This document shows positions 31,758-59,650 of a DNA stretch of 64,000 nt, in pieces. Both the position numbers and the translations under genes were made by a program. The stretch comes from Yuukianura sp. NJ FZ-2021 (taxonomy: Eukaryota), in NCBI GenBank assembly GCA_046563655.1, contig JAJCTO010000010.1:620001-684000 (forward strand), in the 5' to 3' direction. Position 1 is the stretch's first letter; every line of letters starts with the position of its first letter. The notes under the pieces were generated by a model, which had not been told where the DNA came from, made no database searches, and saw only the letters and a program-made list of their open reading frames with translations.

Positions 31758-31835
31758 CGACTTGAATTACTACTGGATGGGAGTATTCTTTGAGCAGAAC
31801 TGCGGGGAAATATGTTCTCTTATGTTCTCTTGATC

Positions 31836-35284: not shown

Positions 35285-36215
35285 ATGGAGGTTCTCATGA
35301 GTTATGAGGGGAGATTACAAACTTTTCAGAACGCTCAACTAAGATGGCCATTGAATTTTGTGACCCCGGAAGCATGTTCGTTTGCGGGATTTTACTACCT
35401 CGGAGTAGATGACAAGGTGGGTAATTTTCAGCTTTATGTGAAAAGATAACGTGGGTAGATGACATGGTGGGTAATTTGCAAATTTCTTTAAAATTTAAAA
35501 AAAAAGTGTTAATGTTTTCTCTGTCGTAAATCAGGTTGCGTGTCCGTATTGCCGAGGTGTCGTCGGGGAGTGGGTGGTTGGTGATGAGCCGTTGTTGGAG
35601 CACCGCAAACATTTCCCACGTTGTCCTTATGTTGTGGTCATGACCGGTCTACTATCCGGGGTTGGGTTTGTTACCGTTCCGGATGTAACTCGGACCCACG
35701 GAATCGAGGCGACCGGAGCAACGAGAATTGATGTTTTCGAATATGTGAGCACAGGAACCGGTATGCGCAGCGCGGTAGCTTCTGATGTTTCTACCGAACC
35801 TGACCAGCCGGGAACAGATGCTGCCAGTGCTGAAACGGGAGGAACCGAGTTGGTCGCAGCAACCGCGCCCGAAACCGACGTTCCCGGCGATGGAGGAGCC
35901 GATTTGGCCGGGGCTGCAACACGTAACGTGGCAGAAATAACTACCCTCGAAACTAATATACCCAGTGTAAGAGGAACTGATGTTGCCGGGACAACTGAAC
36001 ACGTTTTAACAGCGGCATCCGGCGCTTTGGTTTCTGGTGTTAGGAAAGACGACTCTGGCAACAGCCTTACTTGTAAGATTTGTTGGGACAAAGAAGCTTG
36101 CGACGTGTTCTTGCCATGTAAACATTTGGTTGCATGTCGTAAATGTTCATTGTCATTAAAAAGTTGTGCAGTTTGCAGAGAACCTATACTAATTAGATTT
36201 AGGGTGTATACCTAG
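35285..36215 (+). CDS. iap: Inhibitor of apoptosis (single BIR, low-complexity linker, C3HC4 RING), 270 aa; exons 35285-35416 and 35535-36215
   Basis: Spliced product RLQTF..WP..AGFYYLGVDDK|VACPYC..W..GDEPLLEHRKHFPRC; RING CKIC..FLPCKHLVAC..C..CAVCR; TATA at 35241 and TCAGT Inr at 35271. Confidence 0.93.
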
Positions 36216-36459
36216 TCAAGTGTTGATATTTTGTGTCAAGTTTCCCAAGTCCTCCCACAACCCAATTCAAGTAAATGTTGAATTGAGTTGTGGGATGACT
36301 TTTGTTGCTGTGAGTTCGAATCCTACGTTGAGAAATGAATAAAAAAAAATCGATTCAAGTTTTATGTTTTCGTTTGAGGTACGTTTTGTGAATTACTATT
36401 TAATGAAGTGAAAGTTTTGAGGAAGTGAGCATTTGTTGTGCGGGCTAAGAGGAAGAAGC

Positions 36460-39400: not shown

Positions 39401-40711
39401 TGTTTGGGAAAAGTCCTTGGAAAACAGAACAAGAAATTTGGATTGTGTTGTGAAGATGATCATGGATTTGGATGATTGTGGTCCGGAGGGATTAGTTTTG
39501 GAGGTAGATTTGGATTACCCACAAGAATTACATGATTCTCACAATGACTACCCATTAGCAGTAGAACGAAGTGAAATAACATACGAGTGGCTCTCTGACT
39601 ACACGAAAGAAGTTTTGAAGAACGTGGGGGCTACACCTGGATCTTGCAAAAAAACAAAACTTTTGGGGACGTTGTGTAACAAAACAAACTACATTGTCCA
39701 TTATCGACTTTTGAAGTTGTTTTTGGAGCTTGGACTGAAACTTGTGAAGGTTCACAGAGCCATACGGTTTACTCAGGCTCCATTATTTCGTGTATACACG
39801 GACATTTGTATAACACGTCGACGCGAAGCTACGAATCCGGTGGATAAGAACTTTTACAAGGCCATGGGAAACATTTTGGCGGGAAAAGTTTACCAGAATG
39901 TCCGGAAATATAGGCGGATCAACATTGCATTATCAAGAGAGAAGATGAGAGAGTATGCCCGAAAGCCAACCGTTGAGGACGTCAAAATCGTTCATGATGA
40001 GTGTGTTTTGTTTGTGATGAAAAAGTTGGCTGCTAGGCTGGACAAACCTATTTTTGTTGGACAGTGCATTTTGGATGATTCCAAATGTAGAATGTACAGC
40101 TTTTACTACAAGTGGTTAAAGCCGCGATATGGAGACAACATGAGGCTGATGTATACGGATACTGATAGTTTTTTGCTTCACATAAAGACGGAAGATGTTT
40201 ATGCAGATATTGCTGAAAGTGTGAGGAGGAATGAAGGCGTCTTTGACACATCAAAGTACGACAGAGCAAATGAAAAATTTGGATATTTGTGGAGCGAGCA
40301 ATTTGAAGGGGTTGGTGGTTGCTTCAAGGATGAATGCGCCAACGAAGTAATTTCGGAAGCAATAGCATTGAAGCCAAAAATGTATGCAATCAAGATGTTG
40401 AAGGAGGATGGGACCCAAACTCAGCTGAAGAAGGCAAAAGGAACAGTTCGCTCGGTTGTCGAGAATGAATTGGATTTTGAAGATTACAAAAAAGTTTTAG
40501 AAAACGGGCAGTTCAAGTCTTATAGTATGAATACAATTCGAAGTTTAAATCATCGTTTGTATACAACTACAATGTACAAAAAAGTTTGTCAGCATATGAA
40601 GATAAGAGTTTTTATTTGTCTCCAATTGATTCATTAAGATTTGGTCATTATAGAATTGAATTAGAAAAGAATTTGCATCAAATTGTAGACGGTATGGAAG
40701 AAGATGAATAA
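36460..40711 (+). CDS. Protein-primed family B DNA polymerase, ~1395 aa; exons 36460-36577 and 36643-40711; one-base poly-A frameshift near 40580
   Basis: Zn fingers, YLDFE exonuclease, endonuclease-VII-like C..C..DHCH..RG..C..CN, RKGVYPY, YWDANALY, YTDTDS, KPKMY; true C-terminus inferred from copy 1. Confidence 0.93.
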
Positions 40712-40769
40712 AGCCAATTCGACTAAATGTCCTTCCAGTTAGTAGTTGTTTGGAGTTTGATTTGTTAGG

Positions 40770-41429
40770 ATGGAAATCCAATGTTCATTGCAGCATCCGT
40801 TTGTCATGGTGTTGGCCGGTCCTACACAAAGTGGAAAAAGTACATTGATAAAAAAAGTTTTGGAACGTTTAGACGAAGTTGTTGAGCCAAAAATCAAGCG
40901 TGTAATCTACTGTTATGCCGAGGATGAGCCGGATTTTGCAAAAAGTTTAAAAGGAGTTAACAGGGGAAAAGAAATTGAAATTGATTTTCGCCAAGGTATG
41001 GATCACATTGATGTTGACATTGGAAACAAGACGCCAACCCTTGTTGTGTTGGATGACTTTATGGAAGACCTTGGATCATCTTTGGATATTTGTAGAATGG
41101 TTACTCGGGGTTCTCATCACCGTTCACTGTCTCTTATGATTACGATTCAAAATTTTTTCTTCAAAGGATGTAGGAATTTGACTTTAAATGCAAAATATGT
41201 TGCATTATTTCGAAATCCAAGGGATAAGACTATAATAAAATATTTGGGACGACAAATGAATGGCGGAAAATCAAATTCGACGCTAGAAGAAGCATTTGAG
41301 GATGCTACAAAGAACAAGCCAAATAGCTATTTATTTTTAGATATGTCTCAAAGTCAAAATGATGACTTTCGAATAAGATCAAATGTATTTGCAGATCCAG
41401 AATCTTGTATAGTATATTTGAAAAAGTAA
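40770..41429 (+). CDS. A32/FtsK-like genome packaging ATPase
   Basis: Walker A GPTQSGKS, Walker B VVLDD, RGSHH, TIQN, FRNPRD. Confidence 0.93.
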   Translation: MEIQCSLQHPFVMVLAGPTQSGKSTLIKKVLERLDEVVEPKIKRVIYCYAEDEPDFAKSLKGVNRGKEIEIDFRQGMDHIDVDIGNKTPTLVVLDDFMEDLGSSLDICRMVTRGSHHRSLSLMITIQNFFFKGCRNLTLNAKYVALFRNPRDKTIIKYLGRQMNGGKSNSTLEEAFEDATKNKPNSYLFLDMSQSQNDDFRIRSNVFADPESCIVYLKK

Positions 41430-41435
41430 CATACC

Positions 41436-41927
41436 TTAGTTTCGTTTCAACTTTGACAGTCCTTCTGTGAGACAATCAAATAAATGAATTGGAATCACAA
41501 CACTAGATCCAGCATCGTAAACATTTTTAATATGTAAATGTGTGAGCGGTCCTTGGTCATTTCCTTGTTCATTGCCAATGTAGAGCTGCCAACCATCTTC
41601 CAAATTTACTCGTGGTGGTGGATGTGGTTTAGGAAATTCTTGACGAACTTCAACAACCATTGCCAAAGATGTGACTTTACGAGGAATCTTGGGAATTCGA
41701 ACTCGTTTGCGTTGTTTTTTTCTTGGGTAGTATCCGTGAGTATATTTGGGTTTAGGTTAAGAAAATCTTGAATTGGAGAATCCATTTCGACTGGCTGGAG
41801 TTCCGACGTTTTATTGAGGTTACAGTTACAAGAAAAGGTTTCACAAACAGTAATTGTTGTAGTTGAATTTTTTGAAGCAAAAATTTGCAAAAGAACGCCA
41901 CAGAGAGCAAATTTGACACGAGCTCAT
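41436..41927 (-). pseudogene. Hypothetical protein, frameshifted counterpart of 26236-26730
   Basis: Homopolymer indels relative to copy 1. Confidence 0.55.
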
Positions 41928-41939
41928 GTCACGACGAAG

Positions 41940-42902
41940 TTAAACTGAAGACTGAGGAACGCGTTGCAGTTCTTCGTTGTAAAATATTCCAAATATGTCT
42001 TCACCTTTGCTGTCTTTTAACTTGTAAGTGACGGGAACGGAGTTGCAAACTTCAACAATCTGGAAAATTTCTTTTGTCCAGCTTTGGGCGTATCCCTTTT
42101 CAAAAAGTGTTTTATATTTACTAAGTAGTACGGAGTCTCCAACATTGAAGGTAGCAGGTTTCCGTTTCGTTTGGTTTTGTTTTGGTAAGTGTCCGTACAA
42201 ATTTAGAAATACTTCAGTTTTTGTGTCGTCATTGACTTGGTTTGGTGTACATTTTATGGAGCGATGATATGTGTTGTTGTATGAAGTTACAATATTTTGC
42301 AAAACATCTAAGAATTTTGTGGTCTGATTGTGTGTCATATATCTCGCCAACCTTCTCATTAATGTTTGGTTAAATCTTTCAACAATAACTGCCTTCAGTT
42401 CTGATCTAGTACTAAAGAATGAAACAGAGTATTGTTTTAAAAGCTGTTTAACATTTCGATTTAAAAATTCTTTCCCTTCGTCAAATTGAATTGACTTTGG
42501 AGGGCCTCTTTTCTTAAAGATTTTTTGTAAAGCGTTTGCTACTTGACTCCCAGTTTTATTTTTTAAAGGGATGACGTCAGCGACTTTAGAAAAACCGTCA
42601 ATACAAGTCAACAAGAACTTATGATTCGTATTTGCTTCAGAATACTTTGAAATATCGATTAGATCAATTATATACTGATATCTTATGGACGGTATAAAAA
42701 CTTTTTGTCTTTTGTAGCGTTTCCGAGCCGGTTTGTGAAGAGTATAAGCTGGAATTTGTTCTAATGCTTTTAGTACATCAGTTTTTGTGACCCCACTCTT
42801 CTTTTGAACTTTAAAAGTTCCTTCTAATCCTGAAAATGCAAAACTTGAACGAGGATTGACGTAATCCTTGCGTATTTTTTCTATTAAATGTTTCTGCTCC
42901 AT
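41940..42902 (-). CDS. Maverick retroviral-like (rve) integrase, 320 aa
   Basis: IDLID, IDGFSK, DEGKEF, ERFNQT, YNNTYHRSIK, FEKGY..W..E.F, G.FYNEELQ. Confidence 0.95.
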   Translation of the reverse strand: MEQKHLIEKIRKDYVNPRSSFAFSGLEGTFKVQKKSGVTKTDVLKALEQIPAYTLHKPARKRYKRQKVFIPSIRYQYIIDLIDISKYSEANTNHKFLLTCIDGFSKVADVIPLKNKTGSQVANALQKIFKKRGPPKSIQFDEGKEFLNRNVKQLLKQYSVSFFSTRSELKAVIVERFNQTLMRRLARYMTHNQTTKFLDVLQNIVTSYNNTYHRSIKCTPNQVNDDTKTEVFLNLYGHLPKQNQTKRKPATFNVGDSVLLSKYKTLFEKGYAQSWTKEIFQIVEVCNSVPVTYKLKDSKGEDIFGIFYNEELQRVPQSSV

Positions 42903-43030
42903 TATCTAAATGAAATCTGACCCTAAGACTTGAAAATGCCAAACGTTTTATATGAGAGGTATACACACAATGAAATGAGTCATTTGAAGTTTCAACATGA
43001 AGCTGGTCACACGCATAAGTTCACACAATC

Positions 43031-43366
43031 ATGTCTACAACTGTGAAAGAAAACTCAGACTTTTTGAGATATTTAATCAAGTGTTCACCACAACAAAGAA
43101 AAGCGTTAATTAAATATGCTAGTAGTGGTGAAGTCAAAAGTATTTGTGAATGTGTTTTGAATATATACAAAAAAAATGTTGGTCTAAAAAAGTCTACAGT
43201 TGAAAAGTTACGTCCATTCAAAAGAACAATACTTTCAATTGTAAAGAAGAGACGCTCATCATTGGCAAAAAAGAAAAAACTTTTGTCTCAAAGGGGTGGT
43301 GCAATAATTCCATTGCTATTAGGATCTATGATCCCAAGTGTTCTATCAGCCATCTTTCAAAAATGA
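43031..43366 (+). CDS. Small basic Maverick conserved protein (PW-like)
   Basis: ICECVLN, Lys-rich, QRGG followed by a hydrophobic C-terminal helix; label recalled from family pattern. Confidence 0.7.
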   Translation: MSTTVKENSDFLRYLIKCSPQQRKALIKYASSGEVKSICECVLNIYKKNVGLKKSTVEKLRPFKRTILSIVKKRRSSLAKKKKLLSQRGGAIIPLLLGSMIPSVLSAIFQK

Positions 43367-44365
43367 AACGAATGCGTCTAATATCGGAATCAGAGTACAA
43401 GAACAAGTATGAAGAACCAAACAAAAGTTCCATAGAGTCACCAAAGATTGTGGGGGGTGAAGATGAAGATTTGGAACACAAGAAGCAAACAATTTTATCA
43501 GTTGACGATGTACCAGATGATATCAAAGCTCTTTTATACTATGATTTTTCTCGCCGCCTACTCCAAAAAAAAAAAATTTTGTCAAATCGTCCAGTTTTAG
43601 TCAAGTCTATTTCTGAAACTAGTTCAAATTTGACATCAACCTCAAACACCAGTAGCAACAACAACAACAACAACAATCAATCCAACTTGGTACAAAAAAT
43701 TGAGTATGTTACAGAACCATACATCTTAAAACAAGTACCAGGAAAGAATGCCAAAAAGTTTGTAAACTTTATGAAATTGAGTAACATCAGTTGGAATTCA
43801 GACTTGGAAATTTTGATTGATAATAAGCGAATTCCTTCTTCAAATATCATCAATGTCCTCTCTCAATTTATCAATTAAAAAGAAAAATTTGACCGAAAGG
43901 CAAAAACAAAATCTCCTATTTAATATACCAGTTGGATGGAATGAAGTTTATGAACATTTACAAAAATTTGAAGAAATCCAAACACCACCACAAACTGTTC
44001 GTAGAATTCTTGAAAAAGTACCAACAGGAGAAGTTGGTAGTAGAAGAGAAAATTTAACTACTACAACAGTTGCCAGTGAACCAACAACCCCCCTTTCATC
44101 CCTTTTTAAAGGAGATTCTGAAGGAAATATTGAGGAGGAAGGGGATGATGATGATGATGTGGAAAGTAATACATTTGGTACACCACCAACCTTGTCTCCA
44201 CAACAACATCAAAAATCATCTCCACTCAAATCTCTACCAATCAAAGACAGACTTCGAAAACGAGGAAACTTTACTACTACTACTACTACAAATGACAGTA
44301 CAAAAAGTAAAAAAAAAATTGTCAAAAAACAACTTGCCAAAAGTTGGGAAGCATATAAAAATTAA
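43363..44365 (+). pseudogene. Maverick conserved protein (PZ-like), frameshift near 43870
   Basis: MRLI, IL..DDIKALLY, ISWN..I..SNI, GW, terminal W; copy 1 is open across this frameshift. Confidence 0.65.
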
Positions 44366-44514
44366 AAAAAAATTCTTTTTTTTCGTGTGTGTATTTGAAA
44401 AAAAAAAATCCTTGCCTCCATGCTTGCAGGGATGCGCGCGCGCGCGGTCCCTGCTTTATCATGGTGGGTTTTAAACCCAACAATGCTACGCTGGGTGTTA
44501 CTCCCTGCTGACCA

Positions 44515-44680
44515 CGTGGGTTTTAACCCTGCGTGCAACTTGGGTTTAAGCCCTGCGTGCAACTTGGGTTAAAGCCCTGCGTGCAACTTGTATTTAAGCC
44601 CTGCGTGCAACTTGGGTTTAAGCCCTGCGTACAACTTGGGTTTAAGCCCTGCGTGCAACCCGGGGTTTTTAACCCCTGTG
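44515..44680. repeat. 24-bp tandem repeat, ~6-7 copies
   Basis: Unit CCCTGCGTGCAACTTGGGTTTAAG. Confidence 0.93.
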
Positions 44681-44783
44681 CCCCCTCTACTTTTTTTTTT
44701 CTTAAGTAGTAAGTAAACGTTGTATTTATATCTTAGTGTGATTTTGAATTTCGTCAAATAAACACGTGAATCTCAAAAAGAAA

Positions 44784-45584
44784 ATGGCGCATCAACAGCG
44801 TGACACCTCATTTTTTGTAACATTACAATCAAACGCATGTATGGATTTATTTCCAGATAATAAAATTTCAAATTTCAAGAACCGTCTTTCCACAACAATC
44901 TCACTGCCAGCTGGGCAATGGGAAGTTGCGCTCACAGAAATTTCATACACATTTGGAAATGCAATAATACATTCTGGTGACGTATTATTTTCAACTTTCA
45001 AAAAAAGTGAAGATGAGTCAGTATCAAGCCTACAAACATATGTTTGTAGCAGAAACATTACAAGTGAACAGGAACTGTTACAAGAACTTTCATCTGCTCT
45101 AACCGGAGCAACTTTTGAAATTAGGGACCACATCTTCTATTATCAATTCCCTTTGCTACATGAAGGAATTATAGTTTCCCAAAAATTGGTTGATATACTT
45201 GGACTACCTAAAGCAAATCTTTCTGTAACAAGTAGTGCTAAAGCTACAGAAAAACTTTTTTTAAAACAACCTTTTCAACTCAAAGGTCAAGGAACAATGC
45301 CAGTGTTTTTCAATACTGGAAATACAAAAATGTTTGTATACTGTAACCTAATTAAACCACAATTTGTTGGAGATGTACTTGTACAGTGTCTGAGAGTTGT
45401 CAATTATGATGGACACATACGACGCCAAGTTGTAAATGAATTTACACATCCATATTTTTTGGACCTTGCCGTAAGTGAGTTTGACACTGTCAAGATCTAC
45501 TTATCAAATGAAGTTGGAGAAAATCTGGCATTACAATTTGGAAACGTGACGGCGACACTTCGCTTCCGTCAGCGAAAATATTAA
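44784..45584 (+). CDS. Minor capsid protein (penton, PX)
   Basis: FFVTLQSN...FPDN..SNF, WEVALTEISY, MFVYCNLI.PQFVGD..LR, L.FR C-terminus. Confidence 0.88.
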   Translation: MAHQQRDTSFFVTLQSNACMDLFPDNKISNFKNRLSTTISLPAGQWEVALTEISYTFGNAIIHSGDVLFSTFKKSEDESVSSLQTYVCSRNITSEQELLQELSSALTGATFEIRDHIFYYQFPLLHEGIIVSQKLVDILGLPKANLSVTSSAKATEKLFLKQPFQLKGQGTMPVFFNTGNTKMFVYCNLIKPQFVGDVLVQCLRVVNYDGHIRRQVVNEFTHPYFLDLAVSEFDTVKIYLSNEVGENLALQFGNVTATLRFRQRKY

Positions 45585-45597
45585 AACCAAAAACAAA

Positions 45598-46047
45598 ATG
45601 AGAGCCCTAGTCCCATACAATTGTGCCAGAGATAGTGCTCAAAATTTCTTCAAATTTTCAACCCATCCCTCCTCTCTTCATCAAGTTGGCTATGGATCCC
45701 CCATATTTTTTTCTGGAGTACGAAGACAAAGAGGAGCAGGGTTAGGAGCCGTACTAGGTACATTTGCAAGAAGGCTAGTACCATTTTTAAAAAAATATAT
45801 CGCTCCACATGCATTGAATGCAGCCCGCTCAGTTGCATCCGACCTAATTGAACGTAAACGACCAATCTCTGAATCACTTCGTTCCCACGGTATAGACGCT
45901 CTTAAAGGAGTAGGACGGGACTTGCTGAGTCAGACAGGATCTGGACGGCGAGCCGTAAAGAAGCGTAAAAAACGAAAGAAAGGGAAGAAGAAGAAGAAAA
46001 TTGTCAAAAAGAAAATAAAACCCTCCAAACCAAGATACCTATTTTGA
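45598..46047 (+). CDS. Basic core / membrane-active protein (PM-like)
   Basis: QVGYG..F.G..QRGAGLG..L..FARRLVPFLK amphipathic helix; poly-Lys tail. Confidence 0.72.
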   Translation: MRALVPYNCARDSAQNFFKFSTHPSSLHQVGYGSPIFFSGVRRQRGAGLGAVLGTFARRLVPFLKKYIAPHALNAARSVASDLIERKRPISESLRSHGIDALKGVGRDLLSQTGSGRRAVKKRKKRKKGKKKKKIVKKKIKPSKPRYLF

Positions 46048-46065
46048 ACAACAACAACAACAAAA

Positions 46066-47412
46066 ATGCCGAAAGTTAGGTCTTCTAAAGTTTCTCCTAG
46101 CACAGCTTCTTCTTCTTTGCCTTACACATTTGTTAGATCAGAAACACAACTCTTTGAAGAACCAATCTTTGATGTTAGTCTCGCATCAACCTCAGCTACG
46201 GAATTCCATTCAATCAACTCACTTTCAGACAATCAAGCCCCTCTGGAATTTTTTGTACAAGGAAATCAAACTGAACTAATCGACTTGTCTGAAACGAAAC
46301 TTTATTTAAAAGTTAAAATTGTAAAGTCCAACGGCACGGATTTGGATGACAACAGCATTGTTGCTCCAGCCAACAATTTCCTTCACTCGCTATTTCTACA
46401 GTGTTCCATATATCTCAATGAAGTTTTAATTACTCCTGCAAGTTTACAGTATGCCTACAGAGCATACTTGGAAACTTTACTCGGATATGGAAAAGAATAC
46501 AAACGCTCTCAAAGTCAATGCTCCCTTTTCTACAAGGACAAAGATCCTAAATGTACAGATGAAACAAAAGAAGATGGATTTAAACAAAGATACACATTTG
46601 CAGTCAAAAGCAAAATAATTGAAATGGTTGGACGTCCGTTTACCGACCTTTGTGTCCAAAACAAATTTCTCGTTCCTTCAATCGACTTACGCATTTCATT
46701 TTTAAGATCCACACCAGAGTTTTGTCTCGTTGCCAAAACAGCTGGTAACTACCAAGTTCAAATTCAAGATGCTCGCCTCATTGTACAACGCCATCAACTT
46801 CTTCCCTCATTACTAACTTCAATTCTCCAAACTTGGGAGCATGGAAGGCCAGCAACATATCCAATGAAACGAGTTGAAATTAAAACATATACTCTATCCC
46901 CTGGCACAGTTACCAACGTCAACGAAAATCTCATTTCTGGTGTCATTTGTGATCGACTACTAATTGGACTTTTACCTTCAGAAAACTACATTGGATCTAT
47001 AACCACAAATCCATTTGCATTTGAACACTTTGATTTGAGCTACATAAATGTTAGCATTAATGGTGACTCTGGAACTTCACTTGGGACACATGTAGACTTT
47101 ACGCAAGATCAATATGTTCAACTCTACCACAATCTATTTTGTAGTCTCGGAATTGCCAACGATGACGTTGGACTAGATTTGAACCGTGAAGAATTCAAAT
47201 CTCATCCGCTTATGCTATATAATCTCAGACATTCAAAAGAAGGTTTTCCTACTCCCAAATACGGCAACGTCAAGATTGATCTAAAATTTAAAACTGCACT
47301 CAAAAGCTCTGTCACCGTCCTTGTCTACGCCGAATTTCAATCCGTCCTACATATTGATTCCTCAAAATCAGTATACTTTAGAGACTACAGTCTTGCCAGC
47401 CTTCAACAATGA
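46066..47412 (+). CDS. Major capsid protein (double jelly-roll, PY)
   Basis: PLEFFV.G, IDLSETKLYLKVKI, PANNFLHSLF, YAYRAYLETLL, NPFAFEHFD. Confidence 0.92.
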   Translation: MPKVRSSKVSPSTASSSLPYTFVRSETQLFEEPIFDVSLASTSATEFHSINSLSDNQAPLEFFVQGNQTELIDLSETKLYLKVKIVKSNGTDLDDNSIVAPANNFLHSLFLQCSIYLNEVLITPASLQYAYRAYLETLLGYGKEYKRSQSQCSLFYKDKDPKCTDETKEDGFKQRYTFAVKSKIIEMVGRPFTDLCVQNKFLVPSIDLRISFLRSTPEFCLVAKTAGNYQVQIQDARLIVQRHQLLPSLLTSILQTWEHGRPATYPMKRVEIKTYTLSPGTVTNVNENLISGVICDRLLIGLLPSENYIGSITTNPFAFEHFDLSYINVSINGDSGTSLGTHVDFTQDQYVQLYHNLFCSLGIANDDVGLDLNREEFKSHPLMLYNLRHSKEGFPTPKYGNVKIDLKFKTALKSSVTVLVYAEFQSVLHIDSSKSVYFRDYSLASLQQ

Positions 47413-47933
47413 ATACACAACAAATTTACTCTTATCTGGCGAAAATTGTTGGCAAACATCCTTCCACTTTTGATGTAATTCCAATTGATCATTTAAATAC
47501 CATGGAAATTTTCACCTACCCTCTTCTACTTGTCGTCAACAGTGCTCCTTCTCACCATCCAGGACAACATTGGCTAGCCCTGTTTAGAGAAAATTCAAAA
47601 TCTCCACTAACATTTGTAGATTCTTATGGACTTGGTGTAGAAATGTATGATATAGCTCTGCAAAATTTTGCCAAACGTTTAAACACAACCATAATCGAAA
47701 ATACAAAACAACTTCAAAGTATAAATTCTACAGTTTGTGGTGAGTATGCAATTTACTTTCTGTTTAAACTTTTGCATTCCTGCTGTTTAATGTCAATCTA
47801 CTGTAACTTTACTTCAAACACTATTACAAATGATAGGCTAGTAAATCGGTTTGTCAGAAAACTGCTACGTCAAATAGTAAAAACTATCCCCTACTATGGC
47901 CCAACTCAATGTTGTACCCCACATACTAAATAA
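47409..47933 (+). CDS. Adenain-like cysteine maturation protease
   Basis: VVN..PGQHWLA, FVDSYG, LQS..STVCGEY catalytic motifs. Confidence 0.93.
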   Translation: MNTQQIYSYLAKIVGKHPSTFDVIPIDHLNTMEIFTYPLLLVVNSAPSHHPGQHWLALFRENSKSPLTFVDSYGLGVEMYDIALQNFAKRLNTTIIENTKQLQSINSTVCGEYAIYFLFKLLHSCCLMSIYCNFTSNTITNDRLVNRFVRKLLRQIVKTIPYYGPTQCCTPHTK

Positions 47934-48031
47934 GAACAACAAGTAAACGCTCTTTTTTTCTTAATGCTGCACAACACTCACAATGGAGCTTTTATTTTTC
48001 AAAAAAACATTATTCCTCAAAAATAACATTT

Positions 48032-48415
48032 CTAATCGTGAGGCATATCCTCAATTTCCTCCTTGGCAGAAGCGACGTCTCTCAAGCAGCTTTGGAGTGT
48101 GTCCGTAGCTTTGTCCAAGTCACACCCGACGGCACGGCAATAAATGTTCGTAAGTTTCCGCATGACATATGGAATGTTCCGTCCCTCAAAGTTTACCACC
48201 TTTCCCTTGCGTTTAAAGTACACCCAAGTGTATGGTCGTCCTTGAAAAACCGAGTCCCGATGAAAAACCTCCAACTTTTTGTCATCGTCCACATAATTCA
48301 ACACCTCACGCTCCACGCCGTCATCTACGACTGCTTCATCTCCTTATACACACACAAAAAATCACTTTTCCCCAAATTTGCTATTGTAATAAAAAGAATT
48401 ACCTCTCTTGTCCAT
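48032..48415 (-). CDS. Small hypothetical protein, 2 exons (48415-48403, 48342-48032)
   Basis: 60-bp GT-AG intron joins MDKR-G to the 94-aa ORF in frame; TATAAA at 48496-48491 and TCAGT Inr upstream. Confidence 0.6.
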
Positions 48416-48598
48416 TGTTAAAAGTAAGAGACTCCTTCTCCAAATGCTTCTCAAAAACTGAATGATTTGACATGCAACAAGTGCCATGATTTTATACCCC
48501 ACACAAAACGTACAGACAACGACTTTTTATTCAAATCGAACAGATAAGACAGCAAAACGTTTACAATTCAGAAATAGGCATGAATCATATAGTGACGA

Positions 48599-50484
48599 TT
48601 ACCAATTTCCATAGTCAGCAGCAATCGTTTCCAACTCCTTCACCAGCAAGTCCTTGGCTTCCATGTTCTCACCAAACTTAAATGTGAACGACTTTCCCGC
48701 CAAAATATGCCCTCCCCGGGTGCTTGCTGAACTCCCTCTTCCGTTTTCCATCACAACAAGAACCCCCAAAGCATCAGCTGCAGCCAAAATCCTGTTCCAG
48801 CATTCCTTGTCCTGCGAAAAGCTGAACCTTGTTTGCTGACAGACACCGGACAAAGAAATTTCTTGTAGGGCTGGAAGTCTCGGAACTAGTTCCAAGAACA
48901 CAACATGGTCAACCCCGCAAGAAAAATCAATGTGACCTCCAAGGCGGTCCAAATGTAGTTTTCTCAAATTTGGTAGAGATGCAATCGATCTTACAAGTTC
49001 CCCACGTAACACATTTGCGCCGACCAGAGAAAGTTTGTAAATGGACTTCGGATAATTCTGCTGACACACAGTTTTGTGGAACCCTTGAAATCTTCCGTGT
49101 CCAAAGAAGAATGGGCTGTGGCTGTGGGGAATAAACTCCAGACGCAATTCCGTCAAATTATTCAGTTCCTCCAACCCCTCAATCCTATATGGCGACCTCG
49201 CGTCCATCACCACGTTACTAACATCAAACTTGCGTAGGCTTTCTTTGCTATTATTGATTATTACAGCTAGCCGTTGCATTGAAACTCCGTCTAGTTCCAC
49301 CTTCAAGCATTCAAAAGCATTTGGCAAGTCCACCAACTTCCACCAAATACTAAAAAACGAGGACGGGAAAGCGTAGTGCGGAAGACAACTGATCTCCAAA
49401 ACCCGCAACTTTGGCAGCACCACGTTTGCCACATGGCCGATCTCTCCAAACTCCATATTGCTCCCCGTACATGTTAGGTTCAAAACTTCCAACTTCTCAT
49501 GATGCCTTTGGATGAATTCGAAGAAGCTGTGAACTGTGGCCGGCTTGAATTTGTGACACAACTGGAACTCGGAAAGTTGTGCTAGTACAAAGTCGGGTTT
49601 TGAGCACAAAATTTCAAACAACCCGGGCTGTTGGTGCCTTCCGGCATTTCCGTTGGACAAGCAGGAGTCAATCTTGAGTATTTTCAAGTTCTGGAAGTGG
49701 CTCACCATTTGAGACGGCGTGAATTGGGCACAATTGATCTTTCCAATTGCACCAACGTGAAAAAAGTTCATCGCAGGAACAAAGTAATACGTCCGAATTG
49801 CGTTCCGCAGACCGCCCATTGAGCAAGCGCCAGAAAATGTTACCTCCTGGACCAGGCTGCGAAACTTGATTGCAGGCAGCGCTGCGTCACGGTAGTTTTT
49901 CAGAACAAGATGCCTCACTTTCGACTCCTTCACATGCGGCGGGAGCCACTTGTTATAGCACACCAGCTTCCACAATCCCAACCTAAACCAAAAAAAAATC
50001 CTTCAAAAAAAAGCTCAGAATCGCAACAGGAAGCGCCTTGGGATATGTGACGAACCTGTCAACGCGTTTTCTCCACTCGCGAGACACAAGCCGCATTTTA
50101 CTCAGCTCATTATTATTCAAATACGACAGAACAAGGGCCAACATCTAGTTAACAAAAAAATTCATTCATTTTTTCGTATATATATATCCCTTCGCGGCTA
50201 AAGATTTTCCTGTTTGGGGAAACGTGAGAATCGCCCCCTTCCCCTCCTCGAAATTTCTCTAAAAAAAAAAACTGTCAACTCTTGCATTGCCCCGCATGAT
50301 GTAACCAGTCTCACCATGCCCCACTTGACGTTAATCCAAAAACACTCGAATTCTCACATAACCCCGCATGGTGGAGATTCTAAAACACCCAAATTCTCAC
50401 ATAACCCCGCGTGATGTCAATCCTACAAAACCCTACCCAACAGCTCACCTCATTCGGAAGGCTTCCCAACTTCGGGTCTTCCAT
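48599..50484 (-). CDS. F-box/LRR-like protein, 502 aa; exons 50484-50449, 50144-50056, 49982-48599
   Basis: Spliced N-terminus SLPNE|MLALVLSYLNNNELSKMRLVSREWRKRVD; repeated LxxLxL units (NLKILKI, KLEVLNL, KLRVLEI, NLTELRL, NLRKLHL, ALQEISL). Confidence 0.85.
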
Positions 50485-51001
50485 TGCCCCAAATGTGTTA
50501 TAATTTGTGCTTTTTTTGTTGGTTTTCTAACAAGCGTGAGGTACTGTTACAAATGACAAAACAACTCAATTATATACCCCAGCTCAAGGATAAAACAAAC
50601 GTTTCCTGAACGTCCAAAGTCTAACAAAATGACGTCACCTGATAACACAGTCTAACAAGATAGCAACGATAGAAGATGATGGGATGCGTCCAAACTTTGT
50701 CTTCTCACCAAAGTACCACCTAACCATCTACTACGACGTGAAAGTCCAAGGTCATGGGCCACCCATCAAAACTCCTGACGTGCTTATGCTAGACTTTCAC
50801 AGTTTGAATTTCGATGATATTCTTTTCACATTTCTTAAAAAACAAAGTTTTTTAAGAAATTTTCTTAATTCTCTAAGAAATTCATTTTTATAGTACAAAC
50901 AGCAAACCCACAAAAACCGAAAAGTACAACGAAAAAAAAAATTCAATTTTTTTGCAAACAAAACAAAAATGTTGTTTTTTTTTAAATAGTAATTCAAGTA
51001 T

Positions 51002-52370
51002 TTAAAACCCAACTCGGGTAAGGCGCAATCGCATGTTGCGAGTTTCGCACATTGGACCAGCAGACCCCCCCCGCTTTTTTGGAGGGCGCCCCCTTGGGCG
51101 TTTTGGCGGGACTGGCTCCTCCGCCACATCCACAACAGCCACTTCCCGCTTCACGGCAACGTTAGCAAGCTCTTGTTTGAGTCGATTCAACTCCTCCACA
51201 GCTTCCCGTTTTGCCGTTTCAGCCGCAGACGCAACTACTTCGGCCACTTGCTGGTTGTCCTGGGCAATTTTAGTACGCTCCCGAAGTTCGCGCACTTTCT
51301 CTTCAGACTCCTCAAGTTTCTTGTGAACAATGTCAAACCTTGCGGCATAAGACACTTGTTCCTCCTTGTGACGAATGTTCGCCATGTGCCACCGCGCCTC
51401 GGATTCAACGAGTTTTTGACTCAATTCCGCGCAGCGGGATTCGGAGGCTGCTCCCCGCTTGTTCGATTCGTCAATTAATCTTAAGTTGTTCGCCATGATT
51501 TTATCCCTAAACAAAAATTGAAATTACTAACTTCACAGAGAAACACAAACAAAAACTTGACAAAAAAAAATTGACAACATTGAAAGATTGTTAAACCAAA
51601 AAAAACACTTACCACGCCGTAGTACGACAGTTCAGCTCTGTTTCTTTCTTGTTCAGTTCCGCCTGCAAGTTCATAATTGTTTTCGTTTTTTGGCAACTGC
51701 CGAACTCCAACTCCGCAACTCTTTGACCCCTGAAAAAAAAACGAATTAAAAAATTTAATTTTCACACATAACTTAAAAAACTACAAAACGCTTACAATGC
51801 GTATTGCACAGGCAAAGCAGCGATCCTGGCCTGCAGATCAATCACCGTGCTTTCGATGATTTGAATGCGATCACTAAAGATTTTTAAAGAAAAACAAAAT
51901 TTTGTTTAACATTTTTTCAAATAAAACGTAAAAGAAAAATTACCTATCGGAAGTCACCACCAAACCGGACCAGGCCATGCCACATTCCTGCATGGACAGA
52001 AACAGCCTTCGCCCCTCCACTTTCTCCCCAGTGGTCTTGACCATGGCCTGACACACTGGACATGCCGTCCTGAATGAAAAAGCACAAAATTAGCACAAGG
52101 TTTAACTTAACATATAAAGTAATAAAAGTACTTACTCAACTGTGGCCGAATCTCCAAGGCATCCAGGATGGACAGAATTAGCCCAATTCAGCATGCAAAT
52201 CCTAAAAACGCAAAGTTTTTAAATCCTGACCAAACATGTTAATCCTAAGAATCTGATACAAATACTTACCAGTGCAACACGTGGTTGCACTCAGTTGAGA
52301 TGACGATGGCCTTCACGTCCATCGGCTCATGGTCCCCGAACTTGTCCAAACACACGGGACAAATAACCAT
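51002..52370 (-). CDS. RING-H2 / coiled-coil / AT-hook protein, 330 aa; exons 52370-52270, 52201-52136, 52069-51944, 51873-51796, 51729-51613, 51506-51002
   Basis: Five GT-AG introns (68, 66, 70, 66, 106 bp) give one open frame: MVICPVC..ECNHVLHWICMLNW..ACPVC, long heptad region, KRPRGRPPKK. Confidence 0.88.
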
Positions 52371-52833
52371 GGTTTTTTCTTTTTTTTTTTTTACGACAGA
52401 GATTGACAGCACAAACTCAACTTACTTTCAAATTAACTTTCAACTTACAACAAACCTCTTTATATCTTACGAACGAGGCGGACTTAAAAACCAAAGCATT
52501 TAGAGATTGTGCAACTAAACAAAATACTCCAGCGGGGTCGAAGGTTGGAATCCTAACGCTCCAAGCAATTGTCACAGTGTCACACGGACAGAAACTACAA
52601 ATTTCTGTCCACATCCCAAAAGCATGCCAAGGACGTCCAACACTCAAATTAACATCATGTTTTGTCATGTGAATGACTCAGTTTTCAGATATCTGATTTC
52701 AACAACAAAATGTCGTCAAGAACTGGCACAGCAAACTTACGATCTGACTTAACTTAAAAACTTAACGATCTTAACTTAACCTTCGTGAGTCACCCCCACA
52801 GACCAAAAACGCGCGAACGAATCCGGAACGTTT

Positions 52834-53018
52834 TTATTCCCGCCTTATTTCGCTGAGTCACGTTACGAAAGGTTAACGTATTCCGGAATAGGATACATAA
52901 ACCATACTCAATGACTCATGCCTGAAACCCTCAAACTTAAAAACAGAATGCAATTTACCTTGAGTCACCAAACGAAATTAAAACGTTTTACGTTCTTGGA
53001 CACACTAATCATGCTACT
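52834..53018 (-). repeat. Right TIR of the Maverick
   Basis: Ends ...CATGCTACT; inverted copy of both left TIRs. Confidence 0.95.
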
Positions 53019-53953: not shown

Positions 53954-54594
53954 TGTGAAACATATTCGACTGTTCCGCCTTAAGTACTCCAGCGCAAAGT
54001 CCTAAAAATACGACACCGACAAATTTGTATCAATAGCCTTCCACAGCCTTTCGCAGACATGCGTCTGCAAAAGACTAAAAGTGGGTTTTCTACACATTGA
54101 AGTCCAGCCAAACTTTGTTATGATGTCATGTGACGCGTTTGACAATGAATTTGTCAAATGGCCGGAAAACTTTCCACTTAAATTTGATATAAAGAGAAAT
54201 GTTAGAGCAGGCTACTCAGATACGTTGTAACTTGATATACTAAGCCGCACTGAGGTTTCAAAATCAGTGCCCTAACCTATTTACGCTGAAACTTACGTTA
54301 GATTAGCAAGACAGAGACCGCGCTAGAAACTAGCTCTACGTGAAACATATTCGATTGTTCCGCCTTAAGTACTCCAGTGCAAAGGGCCCTAAAAACACGA
54401 CACCGACAAATTTGTATCAATAGTCTTCCACAGCCTGTCGCAGACATGCGTCTGCAAAAGACTGAAAGTGGGTTTTCCACAAATTGAAGTCCAGTCGCTG
54501 GTGTAACATACAAACCCTGTTATGATGCCATGTAACGCGTTTGACAATGAATTTGTCAAATGGCCGGAAAACTTTCCACTTAAATTTGATATAA
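53954..54594. repeat. ~240-bp diverged direct repeat (53954-54193 and 54339-54594)
   Basis: Both run GTGAAACATATTCGA...AAATTTGATATAAA. Confidence 0.85.
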
Positions 54595-54599
54595 ATATA

Positions 54600-56930
54600 T
54601 AATTGTTGGGTCCTCGCCCTTTGATTGTTTGTAGGACGAATGGCCCAGCATAGTCAACTCCCGTATGATGAAATGGAGGTGACGGAGTGACTCGTGGCTT
54701 AGGAAGAGTACCCATTAACTGGCTCATTGTCCTCTGACGCAGTAGTTTGCAACGAATGCAACGATTGCAAACAGACTTGATCAAGTCTCTGGCATGGGTA
54801 ATCCAGTACTGCTCACGAAGAAGAGAAAGAAGTAATCGGTTGCCAGCATGGTGTTATTTGTTGTGGAAATACTCGACAAGCAGCTTGGCAAATGGAGATC
54901 TGCTGTTGAGGATCAATGGATGCTTGGCAGACTCTGGAAGTGACGACTGATGAAGCCGTCCACCGACTCGGAGAGATCTCTCCGTATCTAGATATGGGGA
55001 GAGACTTAGTAATGAACTTGTTTGTTTGACCTTACTATTTTTCTCCAAAGTATTAATTTCATCCTAAAAGTACTGTTGTTGTGAGAGTTGAGCAACCCCG
55101 GTTCTTGCCAAATCGTAAAACTCAACTGACCAAAGCGGTGGGGCTTCCTTCTTCTGTAATTTCAATTTGTAGACGAGGAGACACCCAACCACACGAATCA
55201 ATTTGTGGTATGACGAATACCTAACTAAAATGGGAAATGAACATGTAACGGTTAACATTTTAACCTTACGTTCCTCCTTGAGAATCAGTTCGGTGTGCTC
55301 CTTGGAACTAGTGAATGAAGGAAGTCCTGGTTGAGATAAAAATGCTGGTCCTTCCCACCACAACTGATTGTTAGTTAGATCTTTAAGAGGGATCCCTCTT
55401 GTCCCACAGTCAGCTGAGTTAATCTCGCCTGGTATGAATTTCCAAGATTCTGTCGGGATCAATTGTTGGATTTTAGAGACCCTGTTTGCTGCAAAGGTCA
55501 TCCAGCGACGTGATGAGCAGGAGATCCATCGTAATGTAATCTCACTGTCTGTCCAACAGTAGATTGGACAGTTTAGATCTAAACTTGAAACAAGAGATGA
55601 AATTAATTTTGAAAGGAGCAATGCTCCACACAGTTCGAGACGTGGAAGGCTTTGAGCCTTAGTCGGAGCCACTCTCGTTTTGGACGCTAGGATCCTAGCG
55701 ATTAATGCGTTGTCCTTGAAAGTCCTGATGTACACGACCGCACAATAAGCCTTTTCAAAGGAATCGGCAAACCCATGAATCTCCATTTGGTTGAAGTTAG
55801 GCTGAATGACACAGCGTGGAATTGATATTCGATTCAATTCATTCAGTGATAGACCAAGATGGATCCATCTTTCTTTCATGTCAGTTGACGGTGGTTGGTC
55901 CCATCCAAGATTTAGATTCCACAACTGCTGAAAGAAGACTTTACATGAAATTACGAATGGAGCCAGCAGCCCCAATGGATCGAAGATTTTCGATAAGTCC
56001 TGTAAGACTACTCGTTTTGTTATGTTATGCAAATGATTAAATTCAAACTTATTGAAATACAGTGAATCTGAACCTGGATTCCAACTTACGGTAAGGGCCT
56101 TGGTACTGGACCCTTCAGTCAAGGATTGAGGGGAGATCTCCACCTGACTTTGATCAATTTGTGTAAGTACCTCCTTGCTGTTGGAAGCCCACTTTGTAAT
56201 TCCGAGTTGTCCTTTTGCCAATAGTTGTATCAATTGACGCTGGAGTTCTACCACTTGAGTGCTGGTGGATCCACCAGAGAGAAGATCATCCACGTAGAAA
56301 TCGTTTTCAATTGCATGTTTTGCTAGTGGAAACTGATCCCCTTCGTCTCGGGCCAGGTGTACAAGGGCTCGAACTGCGCAGAACGGAGCCGAGGACGTTC
56401 CATACGTGATGGTCTTCAATCTGTATTCCTTAACTGGAAGGTCAGGAGACTCTCGCCAAAGGATCCTTTGGTAGCGGGAGTCCTGATCAGGAACTAAAAA
56501 TTGTCTGTACATCTTGGTGATGTCAGACTTAATAGCAATCGGGTGAAATCGGAATTTAGACAAATGAGTAAAGACATCCGGTTGAATGGTAGGACCCACC
56601 ATGAGACATTTGTTCAACGTCAACCCGGATTCTAACTTACATGATCCGTCAAACACGACACGAAGCTTTGTGGTTGTGCTATCTTCCTCTAGACCAAAAT
56701 GATGAGGAAGGTAGCAAGAGAGGATGGATCCATCCTGAGTCCTCTCTCCAAATTCATTTGGTTTGACCTCTTCCATGTGACCTAATTTGATGTAATCAGC
56801 CATGACTTTATATTACTCACTTTTGTGCTCAGTGTGACGTTCCAGTCTACGTTCGGTGTGATGGAGCCTCCGCACAGCGATTTCCCTGGATGGTCCAAGG
56901 TTGACAATATTTGGTTTGAACGGAAGTGTG
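54600..56930 (-). mobile_element. Truncated BEL/Pao pol fragment (RT, RNase H, start of integrase), related to element A
   Basis: YLPHHF..STTTKLRVVFDGS, FYVDD, WTDSEITLRW, LRVGGRL, GVDYAGP; stops and frameshifts. Confidence 0.92.
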
Positions 56931-57063: not shown

Positions 57064-57378
57064 GGGGTTGCCCCCCAGGGGGTGGGGGTATTCCCCCCAC
57101 TTTCCCGCCCCCCCCAAGGGGAGTGGGGGTGTTCCCACCACTTTTTTGCTCCGCACCCCAGGGAGCACGGGGGTGTGTTCCGCCACGTTCCCGCCCCCCA
57201 GGGGGAGTGCAGGTGTTCCCCCACTTTTTTGTTTCGCACCCCAGGGAGCGCGGGGGTGTGTTCCGCCACTTTTCCGCCCCTCCGGGGGGAGTGCGGGTGT
57301 TCCCCCACTTTTTTGTTCCGCACCCCAGGGAGCGCGGGGGTGTGTTACGCCACTTTTCCGCCCCTCCGAAGGGAGTGA
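57064..57378. repeat. GC-rich ~84-bp tandem repeat (~3.5 copies)
   Basis: GCACCCCAGGGAG at 57153, 57236, 57320; ~42-bp subunits. Confidence 0.88.
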
Positions 57379-57787: not shown

Positions 57788-58942
57788 TTACTTTAGGCTT
57801 TCAAACACATTTGTACCAGTATTCTGTTCCGCGTTTGTCTGGTTTAGTATTTTGGTGTCCAACCTAATGTACTTCGGAGTACGTACTGTGTAAATCCCAC
57901 ATGCAAAAACAACTTGAGTTAGTTCAGTTTTGTAGCCAGGGAGAACTGAGAATGTCAGTGAGTGCGTTGTTTGTTCCAAAGTCATCATAGTTCTGCCGCC
58001 TCTTGCTAGAGCCTCAGACTGGACCCGTGATTGAAGCACTTCGTCGATAGAGGCAAGGTCATATCCCAATTTCTCGTACTCTTCAATTTCCCTTAACTGC
58101 GTGTTACCAGAATGACTTACACCTACTTTTTTCGTGAAACTGCATATCAACGGTGTGAAGCCTCGGGTGTTATCGCATTCCTTTATAACGTCCAAAGTTT
58201 CTTGCGGTGCACATGTTTCCGCGGGATTGGGAACGTCGCAACACATCATGTCAACGTTGTTTAAAGCAGTATCGTCACCTTCAATTTTTAAGAGGTTTAG
58301 GTTTACTTATAAAACACTAGGTTAGGACAAAAGATTTATGTCGCACTAACCGTCCCCGCGGTATGGCTCTACTTGGGTTCGAATCCCACAAACTTCTTGC
58401 CGATCCAAACATTTTTGTGGAGCAGTCCAACTTCCTCTAGCCGTTCCGGAACCCATTAGTAATGTTTTTCCTGAACAAAATAGATTAATGTTGTTGGCGG
58501 CTGTGTCATCATCATCACTCTTGTCCCCAAAGTACCAACTGAAAAATCCAGAAACAAGTCCGTTTCGACGTGGCGCCTCGGTCCTGAGCTCGAAGCCAGT
58601 TACAAAAGTATTCTGTGGGCAGTACTTAACAATTCCCCATTCGCCAAAGCTCCCTTCCTTCGAGCTAATTTTGGAAAAGTTCCCGGGAATTACACTTCCT
58701 CCAATTCCTCCGCAGTAGAGTTTGATGGCATTCAGCGCAGTATTGTCGAACACTCCCGGCTGTCGGATGGATTCCACCCTCAATTCCATTCCAATTACAA
58801 ACTGACCTGTAGGGCAATAAGCAAAGCCTCCCCAAGTGCCCCAATTCGTGACTCTAGGAGAGGAAATTATGAATTTACAGTTGGCGTACGCAGTAACAAC
58901 CACCAGAATTCCCACCAAACTAAACCCGCTCATTGCTTCCAT
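57788..58942 (-). CDS. Secreted VMO-I (vitelline membrane outer layer protein 1) domain protein with C-terminal extension; exons 58942-58351 and 58278-57788
   Basis: Signal peptide; three WG.W..CP..G..L..E..D.TA.N..L.C repeats; 72-bp GT-AG intron restores GDDTALNNVDMMCC. Confidence 0.88.
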
Positions 58943-59650
58943 CGTGCCTCGAGTTGTTTTGTTTCTATCGTCTTTTTGATAGGAAAACTCCAACACTGTT
59001 CTCTGGAAAAAGTTGTTAAGACAGTGCTCAGGATGACTCTATTAAAGACAACGTTGTCTTGTCACCTTGTTATTTTCTGTGTACTTTCTAACAATTGAAA
59101 CATAAACGTGAAGGTTAACTGCACTGCGGCGAAGTGCTTTGAAGAAAGTTAGGCTTTGTTTAGTGAAAATGGTATTGTTTGGTATTTGAAGGTTTCTCAC
59201 ATGAAGCAAAAAATGTCGAAGGGCGAACTTTGAAATGGATGTTACCTCATGCGGCGGTTATAAAAATGGGACATTATGACGTAAGAACAGAATTAAGAAC
59301 GTCATTCTGTTAAGTTTACGGATACATCGCATATGGGTACAAACATGTTATTGTAAAACTTTACGGCTGGAATCAAATCAAGGACGCCATAATGTACTTG
59401 TAAGTTGGTAAAATCCGAAAGGGTTGTCAGCAATGTCGCATTTGTAAAGGCTATGTGTCTGTGCATAAGCACATGCACTACTATGCGGATGAAACTGCAA
59501 TTAAAAAACCAACATGATCATTTGTCCATGCCTCTACTTGAGTATCCACGTCAACAATCTTAGAGTTGTCGAGGTGATTATCGGTTTTTAGTCTTCTGGT
59601 ATGGGGCTTTAACAACGACACTATTCAAAATATTTTTATTTTTAAAAACT

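Follow-up and report, generated by a model that had tools for sequence, protein, structure and literature searches.

A spliced six-exon RING-H2 gene beside the terminal inverted repeat of a Maverick/Polinton element in an animal genome

The stretch of DNA analysed here, referred to throughout as the window, comprises 64,000 nucleotides (nt) of the forward strand of contig JAJCTO010000010.1 (positions 620,001 to 684,000; NCBI GenBank assembly GCA_046563655.1) from Yuukianura sp. NJ FZ-2021, and it contains a Maverick/Polinton element of ~18.2 kb at 34853-53018 (all coordinates are those of the window) with terminal inverted repeats of ~185 nt. The outermost right-hand gene of this element occupies positions 51002-52370 of the minus strand, is transcribed inward, and is separated by 464 nt from the inner boundary of the right repeat. 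When its six exons are joined by their coordinates they yield a 993-nt coding sequence for a protein of 330 amino acids (aa), in which a predicted RING-H2 zinc finger is followed by a long helix and by a basic tail with an AT-hook-like motif. A first-pass annotation of this DNA had proposed a six-exon model with these exon lengths and donors, phase 2 throughout and a product of 330 aa, and all of this was reproduced by the coordinate-based joining. The order of parts that it had suggested also holds, as indicated by the zinc-ligand set, a structure model of exon 6 and an RGRP motif in the tail.

All exons and introns of the RING gene are read from the minus strand. Exon 1 (52270-52370, 101 nt) opens with an ATG in AACCATGG context and supplies the RING ligands C4, C7, C28, H30 and H33, while exon 2 (52136-52201, 66 nt) adds the ligand C36, a tryptophan four residues further on and a loop with an extra H45-x2-C48 pair. 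The ligand pair C59-x2-C62 and a post-RING linker (RLFLS, aa 77-81) are encoded by exon 3 (51944-52069, 126 nt). A helical, charged region begins in exon 4 (51796-51873, 78 nt) and takes in exon 5 (51613-51729, 117 nt), and exon 6 (51002-51506, 505 nt including the TAA stop) encodes a long helix and then a disordered basic tail. Introns 1 to 5 (52202-52269, 52070-52135, 51874-51943, 51730-51795 and 51507-51612) measure 68, 66, 70, 66 and 106 nt, with guanine-cytosine (GC) contents of 0.29, 0.26, 0.16, 0.21 and 0.25, respectively. Each of the five has a GTAAG or GTAAT donor and a TAG or CAG acceptor, and each interrupts the frame in phase 2; if the three phases were equally likely, five introns would share one phase with a chance of ~0.012, a figure calculated post hoc. 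As the first-pass annotation had claimed, the length of every internal exon is a multiple of 3, a symmetry that it took as allowing in-frame skipping. The GC content of the exons (0.47-0.58) differs from that of the introns (0.16-0.29), and the changes coincide exactly with the splice sites. Similarly, GC at the three codon positions of the joined frame is 0.58, 0.41 and 0.58, a coding-like pattern. A TATA-like box (TATAAAG, 52458-52464, minus strand), a motif match only, is positioned ~90 nt upstream of the ATG.

Read without splicing, the RING gene reaches a stop after 34 codons. Because the first exon stops so early, ab initio calling of open reading frames (ORFs) would overlook the gene entirely, and such genes may therefore be under-counted in surveys of Mavericks. 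An origin of the five introns as introners was considered and rejected: when they were aligned together with two other introns the mean column identity was 40%, and the similarity was limited to the splice sites and to AT-richness.

How often such a model might arise by chance was assessed with a fixed splice rule, requiring a GTRAG or GTAAT donor, a YAG acceptor and an intron of 50-150 nt, which was adopted because an unrestricted count, allowing any GT..AG intron of 40-300 nt, returns ~1e11 models, is uninformative and decides nothing. Starting from the RING-gene ATG, the fixed rule permits 30 models, the longest of which is the six-exon model; four others end at the same stop codon by way of acceptors that lie within exons. 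The same rule was applied, from any ATG, to 200 dinucleotide shuffles of the 1.5-kb region. The longest frame so obtained was 193 aa and the mean was 84 aa, such that none of the 200 shuffles gave a frame of at least 200 aa, as compared to 330 aa for the real sequence. By its frame, its splice signals, its GC contrast and this shuffle control, the RING gene is a real, intact, spliced protein-coding gene.

In the spliced translation the zinc ligands read C4-x2-C7-x20-C28-x-H30-x2-H33-x2-C36-x22-C59-x2-C62, and all eight occur in C-C-C-H-H-C-C-C order with canonical spacing. They are divided five, one and two among exons 1, 2 and 3, and the complete set over these exons bears out the earlier proposal of a RING-H2 finger that spans three exons. 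The H45-x2-C48 pair falls in the last RING loop and is an alternative candidate to C59/C62 for closing the second zinc site. Catalytic RING-H2 fingers show the same ligand pattern and likewise have a tryptophan after the sixth ligand. Pfam and PDB scans were carried out exon by exon on unbroken stretches, rather than on the joined protein. Exon 1 (33 aa) matched seven Pfam families at E<=10, all seven of them RING-type, with zf-RING_2 (PF13639) the best at E 6e-4. Among PDB sequences it matched ten distinct entries at E<=10, namely five RNF4 RING constructs, four of TRIM21 and one of RNF13. The E-values against the RNF4 RING chains ranged from 1.5e-7 to 1.7e-3, with only 31-32 residues aligned, and the best match to a single-RING entry was the RNF4 RING 2xeu_A (E 2.6e-4). 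Exon 2 alone had no match in Pfam or PDB, and exon 3 alone had none in PDB. From the sequence, the protein thus begins with a putative RING-H2 finger and is a predicted E3 ligase.

The likeness to the RNF4 RING (PDB 2xeu, 4ap4, 3ng2, 4ppe and 2ea6) consists of an unusually long first loop and a common run of residues before the third ligand, over the 33 residues compared. RNF4 carries a C3HC4 RING at its C-terminus, behind clustered SUMO-interaction motifs (SIMs). Here, in contrast, the finger is N-terminal, is of the RING-H2 type with histidine rather than cysteine as its fifth ligand, and is followed by a long helix.

An AlphaFold2 single-sequence model of exon 6 (167 aa) consists of one helix over residues 2-123, with 10-residue block means of the predicted local distance difference test score (pLDDT) of 95-98 through residue 110 and a tail at a pLDDT of ~50. 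In protein numbering the modelled helix corresponds to aa 165-286 (122 residues) and the low-confidence tail to aa 287-330 (44 residues). Residues 98-290 include 31 lysines and arginines, 33 aspartates and glutamates and a single proline, a composition that suggests a long helix of ~190 residues, 122 of which are covered by the model. Exon 5 gave a weak coiled-coil match in Pfam (PKcGMP_CC, E 0.0056) that falls under the cut-off. Within the tail, a regular-expression search located an AT-hook-like motif, which may also be a nuclear localisation signal, at 51074-51109 on the minus strand (aa 296-307); its RGRP core (aa 301-304) is embedded in a basic stretch rich in lysine, arginine and proline (aa 296-308). 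An AT-hook is defined by an R-G-R-P core with basic flanks, and the tail fits this definition. A DNA-tethered E3 ligase or transactivator had been suggested earlier for this product; such tethering would depend on one short motif, which Pfam did not report. A pattern scan of the RING protein found neither LxCxE nor the PIP-box pattern Q-x-x-[LIM]-x-x-[FY]-[FY]. Four loose SIM-like 4-mers occur after the RING, and such 4-mers are common by chance.

The C-terminal half of the protein appears to be without detectable relatives. For example, a word-index search with exon 6 against longer proteins gave 2202 candidates, none of them at E<=0.001, and a HMMER search of 1.84 billion representative proteins likewise gave no match at E<=0.001. 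In the ESM Atlas the best score for exon 6 was 0.87, with none at or above 0.9 and none named, and no Pfam family exceeded its threshold. Exon 3 (41 aa), searched against longer proteins, gave three candidates, none of them at E<=10. For the capsid ORF of the same element (46048-47412, no Pfam match), 7075 candidates included 322 relatives at E<=0.001, and the top one, from a metagenome, is 61% identical. Proteins named 'F54H12.2-like', the customary label for Maverick capsid ORFs, are among these relatives; they come from a spider, a sea spider and an octocoral and share 32-33% identity. Since even the closest capsid relative reaches no more than 61% identity, neither the host species nor the element family seems to be represented in the protein collections, and blank searches carry correspondingly limited weight. 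No match in viral contigs was obtained with the terminal-repeat pattern or with the product of a neighbouring F-box gene, nor with the capsid protein in a direct search of viral contigs; tblastn of the capsid protein against a phage collection, which was off target, also gave none. The capsid alignment did lead to one related viral contig (locus L005), whose capsid is 35% identical and whose core gene order is the same. Beyond its protease gene, this contig carries an inward-facing ORF of 170 aa (11373-11885 of the contig, minus strand) with a weak PC4-like match below threshold (E 0.0034) and no RING, BIR or F-box domain.

That the RING gene lies inside a mobile element, as had been proposed before the element was classified, is upheld by the core genes and terminal repeats that identify the element as a Maverick/Polinton. 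The right terminal inverted repeat (52834-53018) is 96.8% identical over 185 nt, and 99% identical over 144 nt, to the inverted left repeat of the full copy (34853-35036), whose terminus begins with AG. Of 53 ORFs of at least 130 aa in the window, 22 were scanned against Pfam. The genes between 34.8 and 53.0 kb include an ORF with BIR and RING domains, a polB-like gene, an IVa2/AAA-like ATPase, an rve integrase, two ORFs without a Pfam match and an adenain-like protease. The protease gene ends at 47933, and the RING gene sits between it and the right repeat. The polB-like ORF is 1334 aa long and contains DFEA and YTDTDS motifs, and the only feature that Pfam reports for it is an endonuclease VII-like insert at aa 583-636. 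The region 36460-36643 (plus strand) seems to hold a short 5′ exon (36460-36577) with a C2H2-like zinc-finger pattern, which joins this ORF in phase 1 across a 65-nt intron.

Two further genes near the ends of the element are also spliced. Directly downstream of the RING gene and on the same strand is a three-exon F-box/leucine-rich-repeat (LRR) gene (48599-50484, minus strand; exons 50484-50449, 50144-50056 and 49982-48599), with introns of 304 nt, which contains short repeats, and 73 nt, in phase 2. Its F-box motif is split by a junction, the LPxE start being in exon 1 and the rest in exon 2, and exon 2 alone passes the Pfam F-box cut-off (23.5 bits versus 20.5, E 4.9e-5). Exon 3 has cysteine-type LRR-like repeats when inspected by eye and weak Pfam LRR matches, and its structure model (mean pLDDT 45) is too poor for use. 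The product is likely to be an SCF substrate receptor. A TATATAA box is found by this gene at 50576-50570. At the opposite end, just inside the left repeat and upstream of the polB-like gene, a two-exon IAP gene with a BIR domain and a C3HC4 RING (35285-36215, plus strand) is transcribed inward, and the arrangement of repeat, TATA box and inward spliced gene mirrors that of the right end. The IAP intron cuts the BIR profile exactly (exon 1, positions 1-36; exon 2, positions 37-69), and the RING is recognized as zf-C3HC4_3 at E 1.7e-11. This exact join of the two BIR halves shows, independently of the RING gene, that genes of the element are spliced. A derivation of the RING gene by duplication of the IAP RING was rejected, since tblastn of the spliced protein gave no match to the IAP RING at E<=1. 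In the IAP-equivalent region of a truncated copy of the element, described below, the longest open frame listed is 145 aa (19532-19969).

Base composition separates these genes from the core. GC at third codon positions (GC3) is 0.58 for the RING gene, 0.54 for the F-box/LRR gene and 0.42 for both the IAP and the polB-like genes, as compared to 0.25-0.30 for the ATPase, the integrase, both capsid genes and the protease. A VOMI-domain gene outside the element has a GC3 of 0.45.

On balance we think it rather probable that the RING gene is an accessory E3-ligase gene of the Maverick/Polinton, captured as cargo, whose product is directed to the nucleus and to AT-rich DNA and which forms part of a set of accessory genes concerned with ubiquitin and cell death. 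We are more confident of the gene model than of the overall reading, and less confident of the specific mechanism. Transcription would proceed inward from a TATA-type promoter adjoining the terminal repeat. The helix may pair two or more chains of the RING protein, drawing their RING domains together, and the paired RINGs would then recruit a host E2 enzyme. In this scheme the basic tail would carry the protein into the nucleus and attach it to AT-rich DNA, where it might ubiquitinate chromatin-associated host factors or proteins of the element. The RING, F-box/LRR and IAP proteins together could constitute an accessory set aimed at the host ubiquitin and cell-death machinery. Indeed, large DNA viruses bend host ubiquitination and cell death to their own use.

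As for origin, the first-pass annotation had offered either capture at the DNA level or intron gain within the element. Uptake at the DNA level as cargo, introns included, would be the most likely course, and capture as cargo fits the position beside the terminal repeat, the five introns and a GC3 of 0.58 versus 0.25-0.30; no donor gene was found, the C-terminal half being without a detectable homologue.

The RING gene can be placed among two kinds already known, namely cargo or accessory genes of Mavericks and virus-borne RING proteins. In nematode Mavericks, a region beside one terminal repeat has been described as GC-richer and poorly conserved and as the site of cargo genes with introns, while the core genes are intronless (Widen et al., bioRxiv 10.1101/2022.07.12.499685). 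Like that cargo, which includes wasp proteases and krma kinases, the RING gene adjoins a terminal repeat, has introns and exceeds the core genes in GC, and the capsid, ATPase, integrase and protease of the present element are likewise single ORFs. Unlike in that cargo, the product here is a RING-H2/helix/AT-hook-like protein instead of a protease or kinase, the accessory region is found at the right end beyond the protease gene rather than between a repeat and the integrase gene, and the polB-like gene also carries an intron. Adintoviruses provide a second comparison: IAP and Bcl2 homologues and 'Oncoid' genes have been reported for them (Starrett et al. 2021, PMC8502044, main text). With these animal Maverick-type elements the present one shares an adenain, an IVa2-like ATPase, an integrase and host-interaction genes, including an IAP upstream of polB; in contrast, a multi-intron RING-H2 gene is not described in the main text of PMC8502044, where 'intron' refers to group II intron maturases only. 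More broadly, the parts of the Maverick and adintovirus literature covered here describe no multi-intron RING-H2/coiled-coil gene, and the supplements of those papers may list such genes. RING finger protein clusters are mentioned for protist polinton-like viruses and virophages (10.64898/2026.07.28.741278).

The layout of the RING protein had earlier been compared to TRAIP and to the baculovirus proteins IE2, PE38 and CG30. Human TRAIP is a 469-aa protein with an N-terminal RING, a coiled coil that forms dimers or trimers and a leucine zipper (PMC6121587), and it binds PCNA (PMC4700480). The order of an N-terminal RING (here aa 4-62), a long coiled coil and a basic C-terminal region that acts, or here would act, on chromatin is alike, a likeness of layout only. 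Unlike TRAIP, the protein described here has no PIP-box pattern, no TRAIP chain is among the PDB matches of exon 1, and its C-terminal half has no detectable homologue. In AcMNPV, the IE2, PE38 and CG30 proteins combine a zinc or RING finger with a coiled coil of 70-133 aa and are predicted to dimerise; IE2 and PE38, the products of immediate-early genes, are termed transcription factors, and IE2 interacts with itself through its coiled coil (PMC9483598). The RING protein shares the pairing of a finger and a long coiled coil with these DNA-virus proteins, which again is a likeness of layout, and no sequence similarity to the baculovirus families was detected with exon 1, the only exon from which this was judged. 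The earlier comparison is thus sustained for the finger-plus-coiled-coil layout, but not for sequence, in that, among solved structures, exon 1 most resembles the RNF4 RING and no baculovirus family was seen. E3 activity has been reported for IE2, PE38 and CG30, whose genes are not known to contain introns.

A viral nature in animals is suspected for Mavericks/Polintons, and little is known of how they handle the host cell; with its three intact, spliced genes of host style for ubiquitin and apoptosis control, this element supplies candidates for that interface. If the RING gene is indeed cargo, intron-bearing cargo beside a terminal repeat would extend from nematodes to another animal lineage. 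The practical value of the finding hinges on expression of the RING gene.

Before the arguments against this reading are weighed, the structure of the locus has to be considered. A second Maverick copy occupies 18603-34852, matches the initial 9.7 kb of the full copy at 97-99% identity and ends exactly at the full copy's start, such that the two are joined head to tail. It contains insertions at 21786-22794 and 27392-32912, the latter with a reverse-transcriptase element. In the full copy, a 24-nt tandem repeat of ~6-8 units (44479-44670) lies upstream of the first capsid gene, and the truncated copy breaks at the start of this array. The element is apparently young and adintovirus-like, and resides in an animal genome.

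Several observations weigh against an accessory E3-ligase gene carried by the element. The main weakness is that the locus is rearranged, since target-site duplications are absent from the flanks of either pairing of terminal repeats and the copies are head to tail; membership of the RING gene in the mobile unit is drawn from its position only. The second copy stops at the equivalent of ~44.5 kb, and the capsid, protease and RING gene region is therefore single in the window. Related elements offered no counterpart: tblastn of the spliced RING protein against four short related metagenome contigs yielded nothing better than an E-value of 2.8, and among the 10 ORFs scanned in L005, of 13 with at least 90 aa, none contained a RING, BIR or F-box domain (the other three were the capsid ORF and two antisense ORFs). 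Cargo genes are also not alone in having introns, since the polB-like gene has one at its 5′ end as well. With respect to the protein, the zf-RING_2 match of exon 1 scores 20.5 bits versus a cut-off of 27.3 and covers positions 3-26 of the 44 in the profile, the remainder being encoded in exons 2 and 3. The AT-hook is one short motif, and Pfam AT_hook (PF02178) was not reported for exon 6 at E<=10, a model so short that HMMER filters drop weak matches. Finally, no AATAAA or ATTAAA is present in the ~300 nt 3′ of the RING-gene stop.

The rearrangement bears on the possibility that the element does not carry the RING and F-box/LRR genes, these being ordinary genes of the host that happen to be placed between a Maverick copy truncated after its protease gene and a solitary terminal repeat from another copy. 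Multiple introns would be expected of such genes, their GC3 of 0.54-0.58 is nearer to that of the VOMI-domain gene (0.45) than to the core (0.25-0.30), the missing target-site duplication and head-to-tail copies indicate a rearranged locus, and the one related contig examined, L005, is without such genes. Yet the right repeat is correctly inverted, so that the element measures ~18.2 kb and has all of its core genes, and the left end mirrors the right with its repeat, TATA box and inward spliced accessory IAP gene. In addition, GC-richer, intron-bearing cargo beside a terminal repeat has been described in nematode Mavericks (bioRxiv 10.1101/2022.07.12.499685), and no host-type homologue of the C-terminal half turned up among the 1.84 billion representative proteins. 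We therefore regard an origin as bystander host genes as unlikely.

If the gene does belong to the element, its product might act mainly as a DNA-bound immediate-early transactivator in the manner of IE2 and PE38, with the RING serving assembly and not substrate ubiquitination. The combination of a zinc finger and a long coiled coil matches the layout described for AcMNPV IE2, PE38 and CG30 (PMC9483598), and both the AT-hook-like tail and the location of the gene at the element end behind its own TATA box would suit such a role. All seven Pfam families matched by exon 1 at E<=10 are, in contrast, generic RING families with none baculoviral among them, and the ligand pattern and tryptophan point to a catalytic RING-H2 finger. 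The two roles are not mutually exclusive; as the principal function, transactivation strikes us as improbable.

A more specific proposal builds on the accessory E3-ligase reading itself. The IAP gene at the left end and the F-box/LRR and RING-H2 genes at the right, all spliced, might form a three-gene kit that hijacks host ubiquitin and cell-death pathways, in which the RING protein would be a viral analogue of SUMO-targeted ligases that removes chromatin-bound host silencing factors. The RNF4-like first half of the RING, the SIM-like motifs after the finger, a dimer formed through the helix and a tether to the AT-rich DNA of the element would each have a place in such a scheme. HSV (herpes simplex virus) ICP0 removes chromatin-bound host silencing factors, and adenovirus genome ends carry early regions; the two terminal genes here are likewise transcribed inward. 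We hold this proposal to be quite unlikely in its full form, and if it is true, no early-gene counter-defence module would have been described before in an animal Maverick.

Least tenable is the idea that the RING gene is an unexpressed or decaying remnant or an over-fitted model, with a frame that is open only through the youth of the insertion and with no function in element or host, for while no homologue was found in the searches, no second copy is present in the window, no canonical poly(A) signal is evident and copies in the window that are 97-99% identical have had little time for decay to show, the five consensus splice-site pairs placed exactly at composition boundaries, the complete zinc-ligand set split over three exons, the frame exceeding every one of 200 shuffles and the coding-like codon-position GC make it very unlikely.

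The remainder of the window contains other repeats and one probable host gene. A Bel/Pao retrotransposon at 6828-13307 has a frame of 1740 aa (7687-12909) and direct repeats (6828-7127 and 13008-13307) without a single difference in the 300 nt compared (100% identity), and it looks very recently inserted. Further Bel/Pao pieces are located at 2604-5392 and 54389-56812. Two tandem arrays were also found, one with a 44-nt period (31782-32342) that adjoins the reverse-transcriptase element in the truncated Maverick, and a GC-rich one with an 83-84-nt period (57105-57355) that adjoins a Bel/Pao fragment. Outside the Maverick, an ORF at 58346-59038 on the minus strand encodes a full vitelline membrane outer layer protein I (VOMI) domain (E 2.3e-38) and is probably a host gene.

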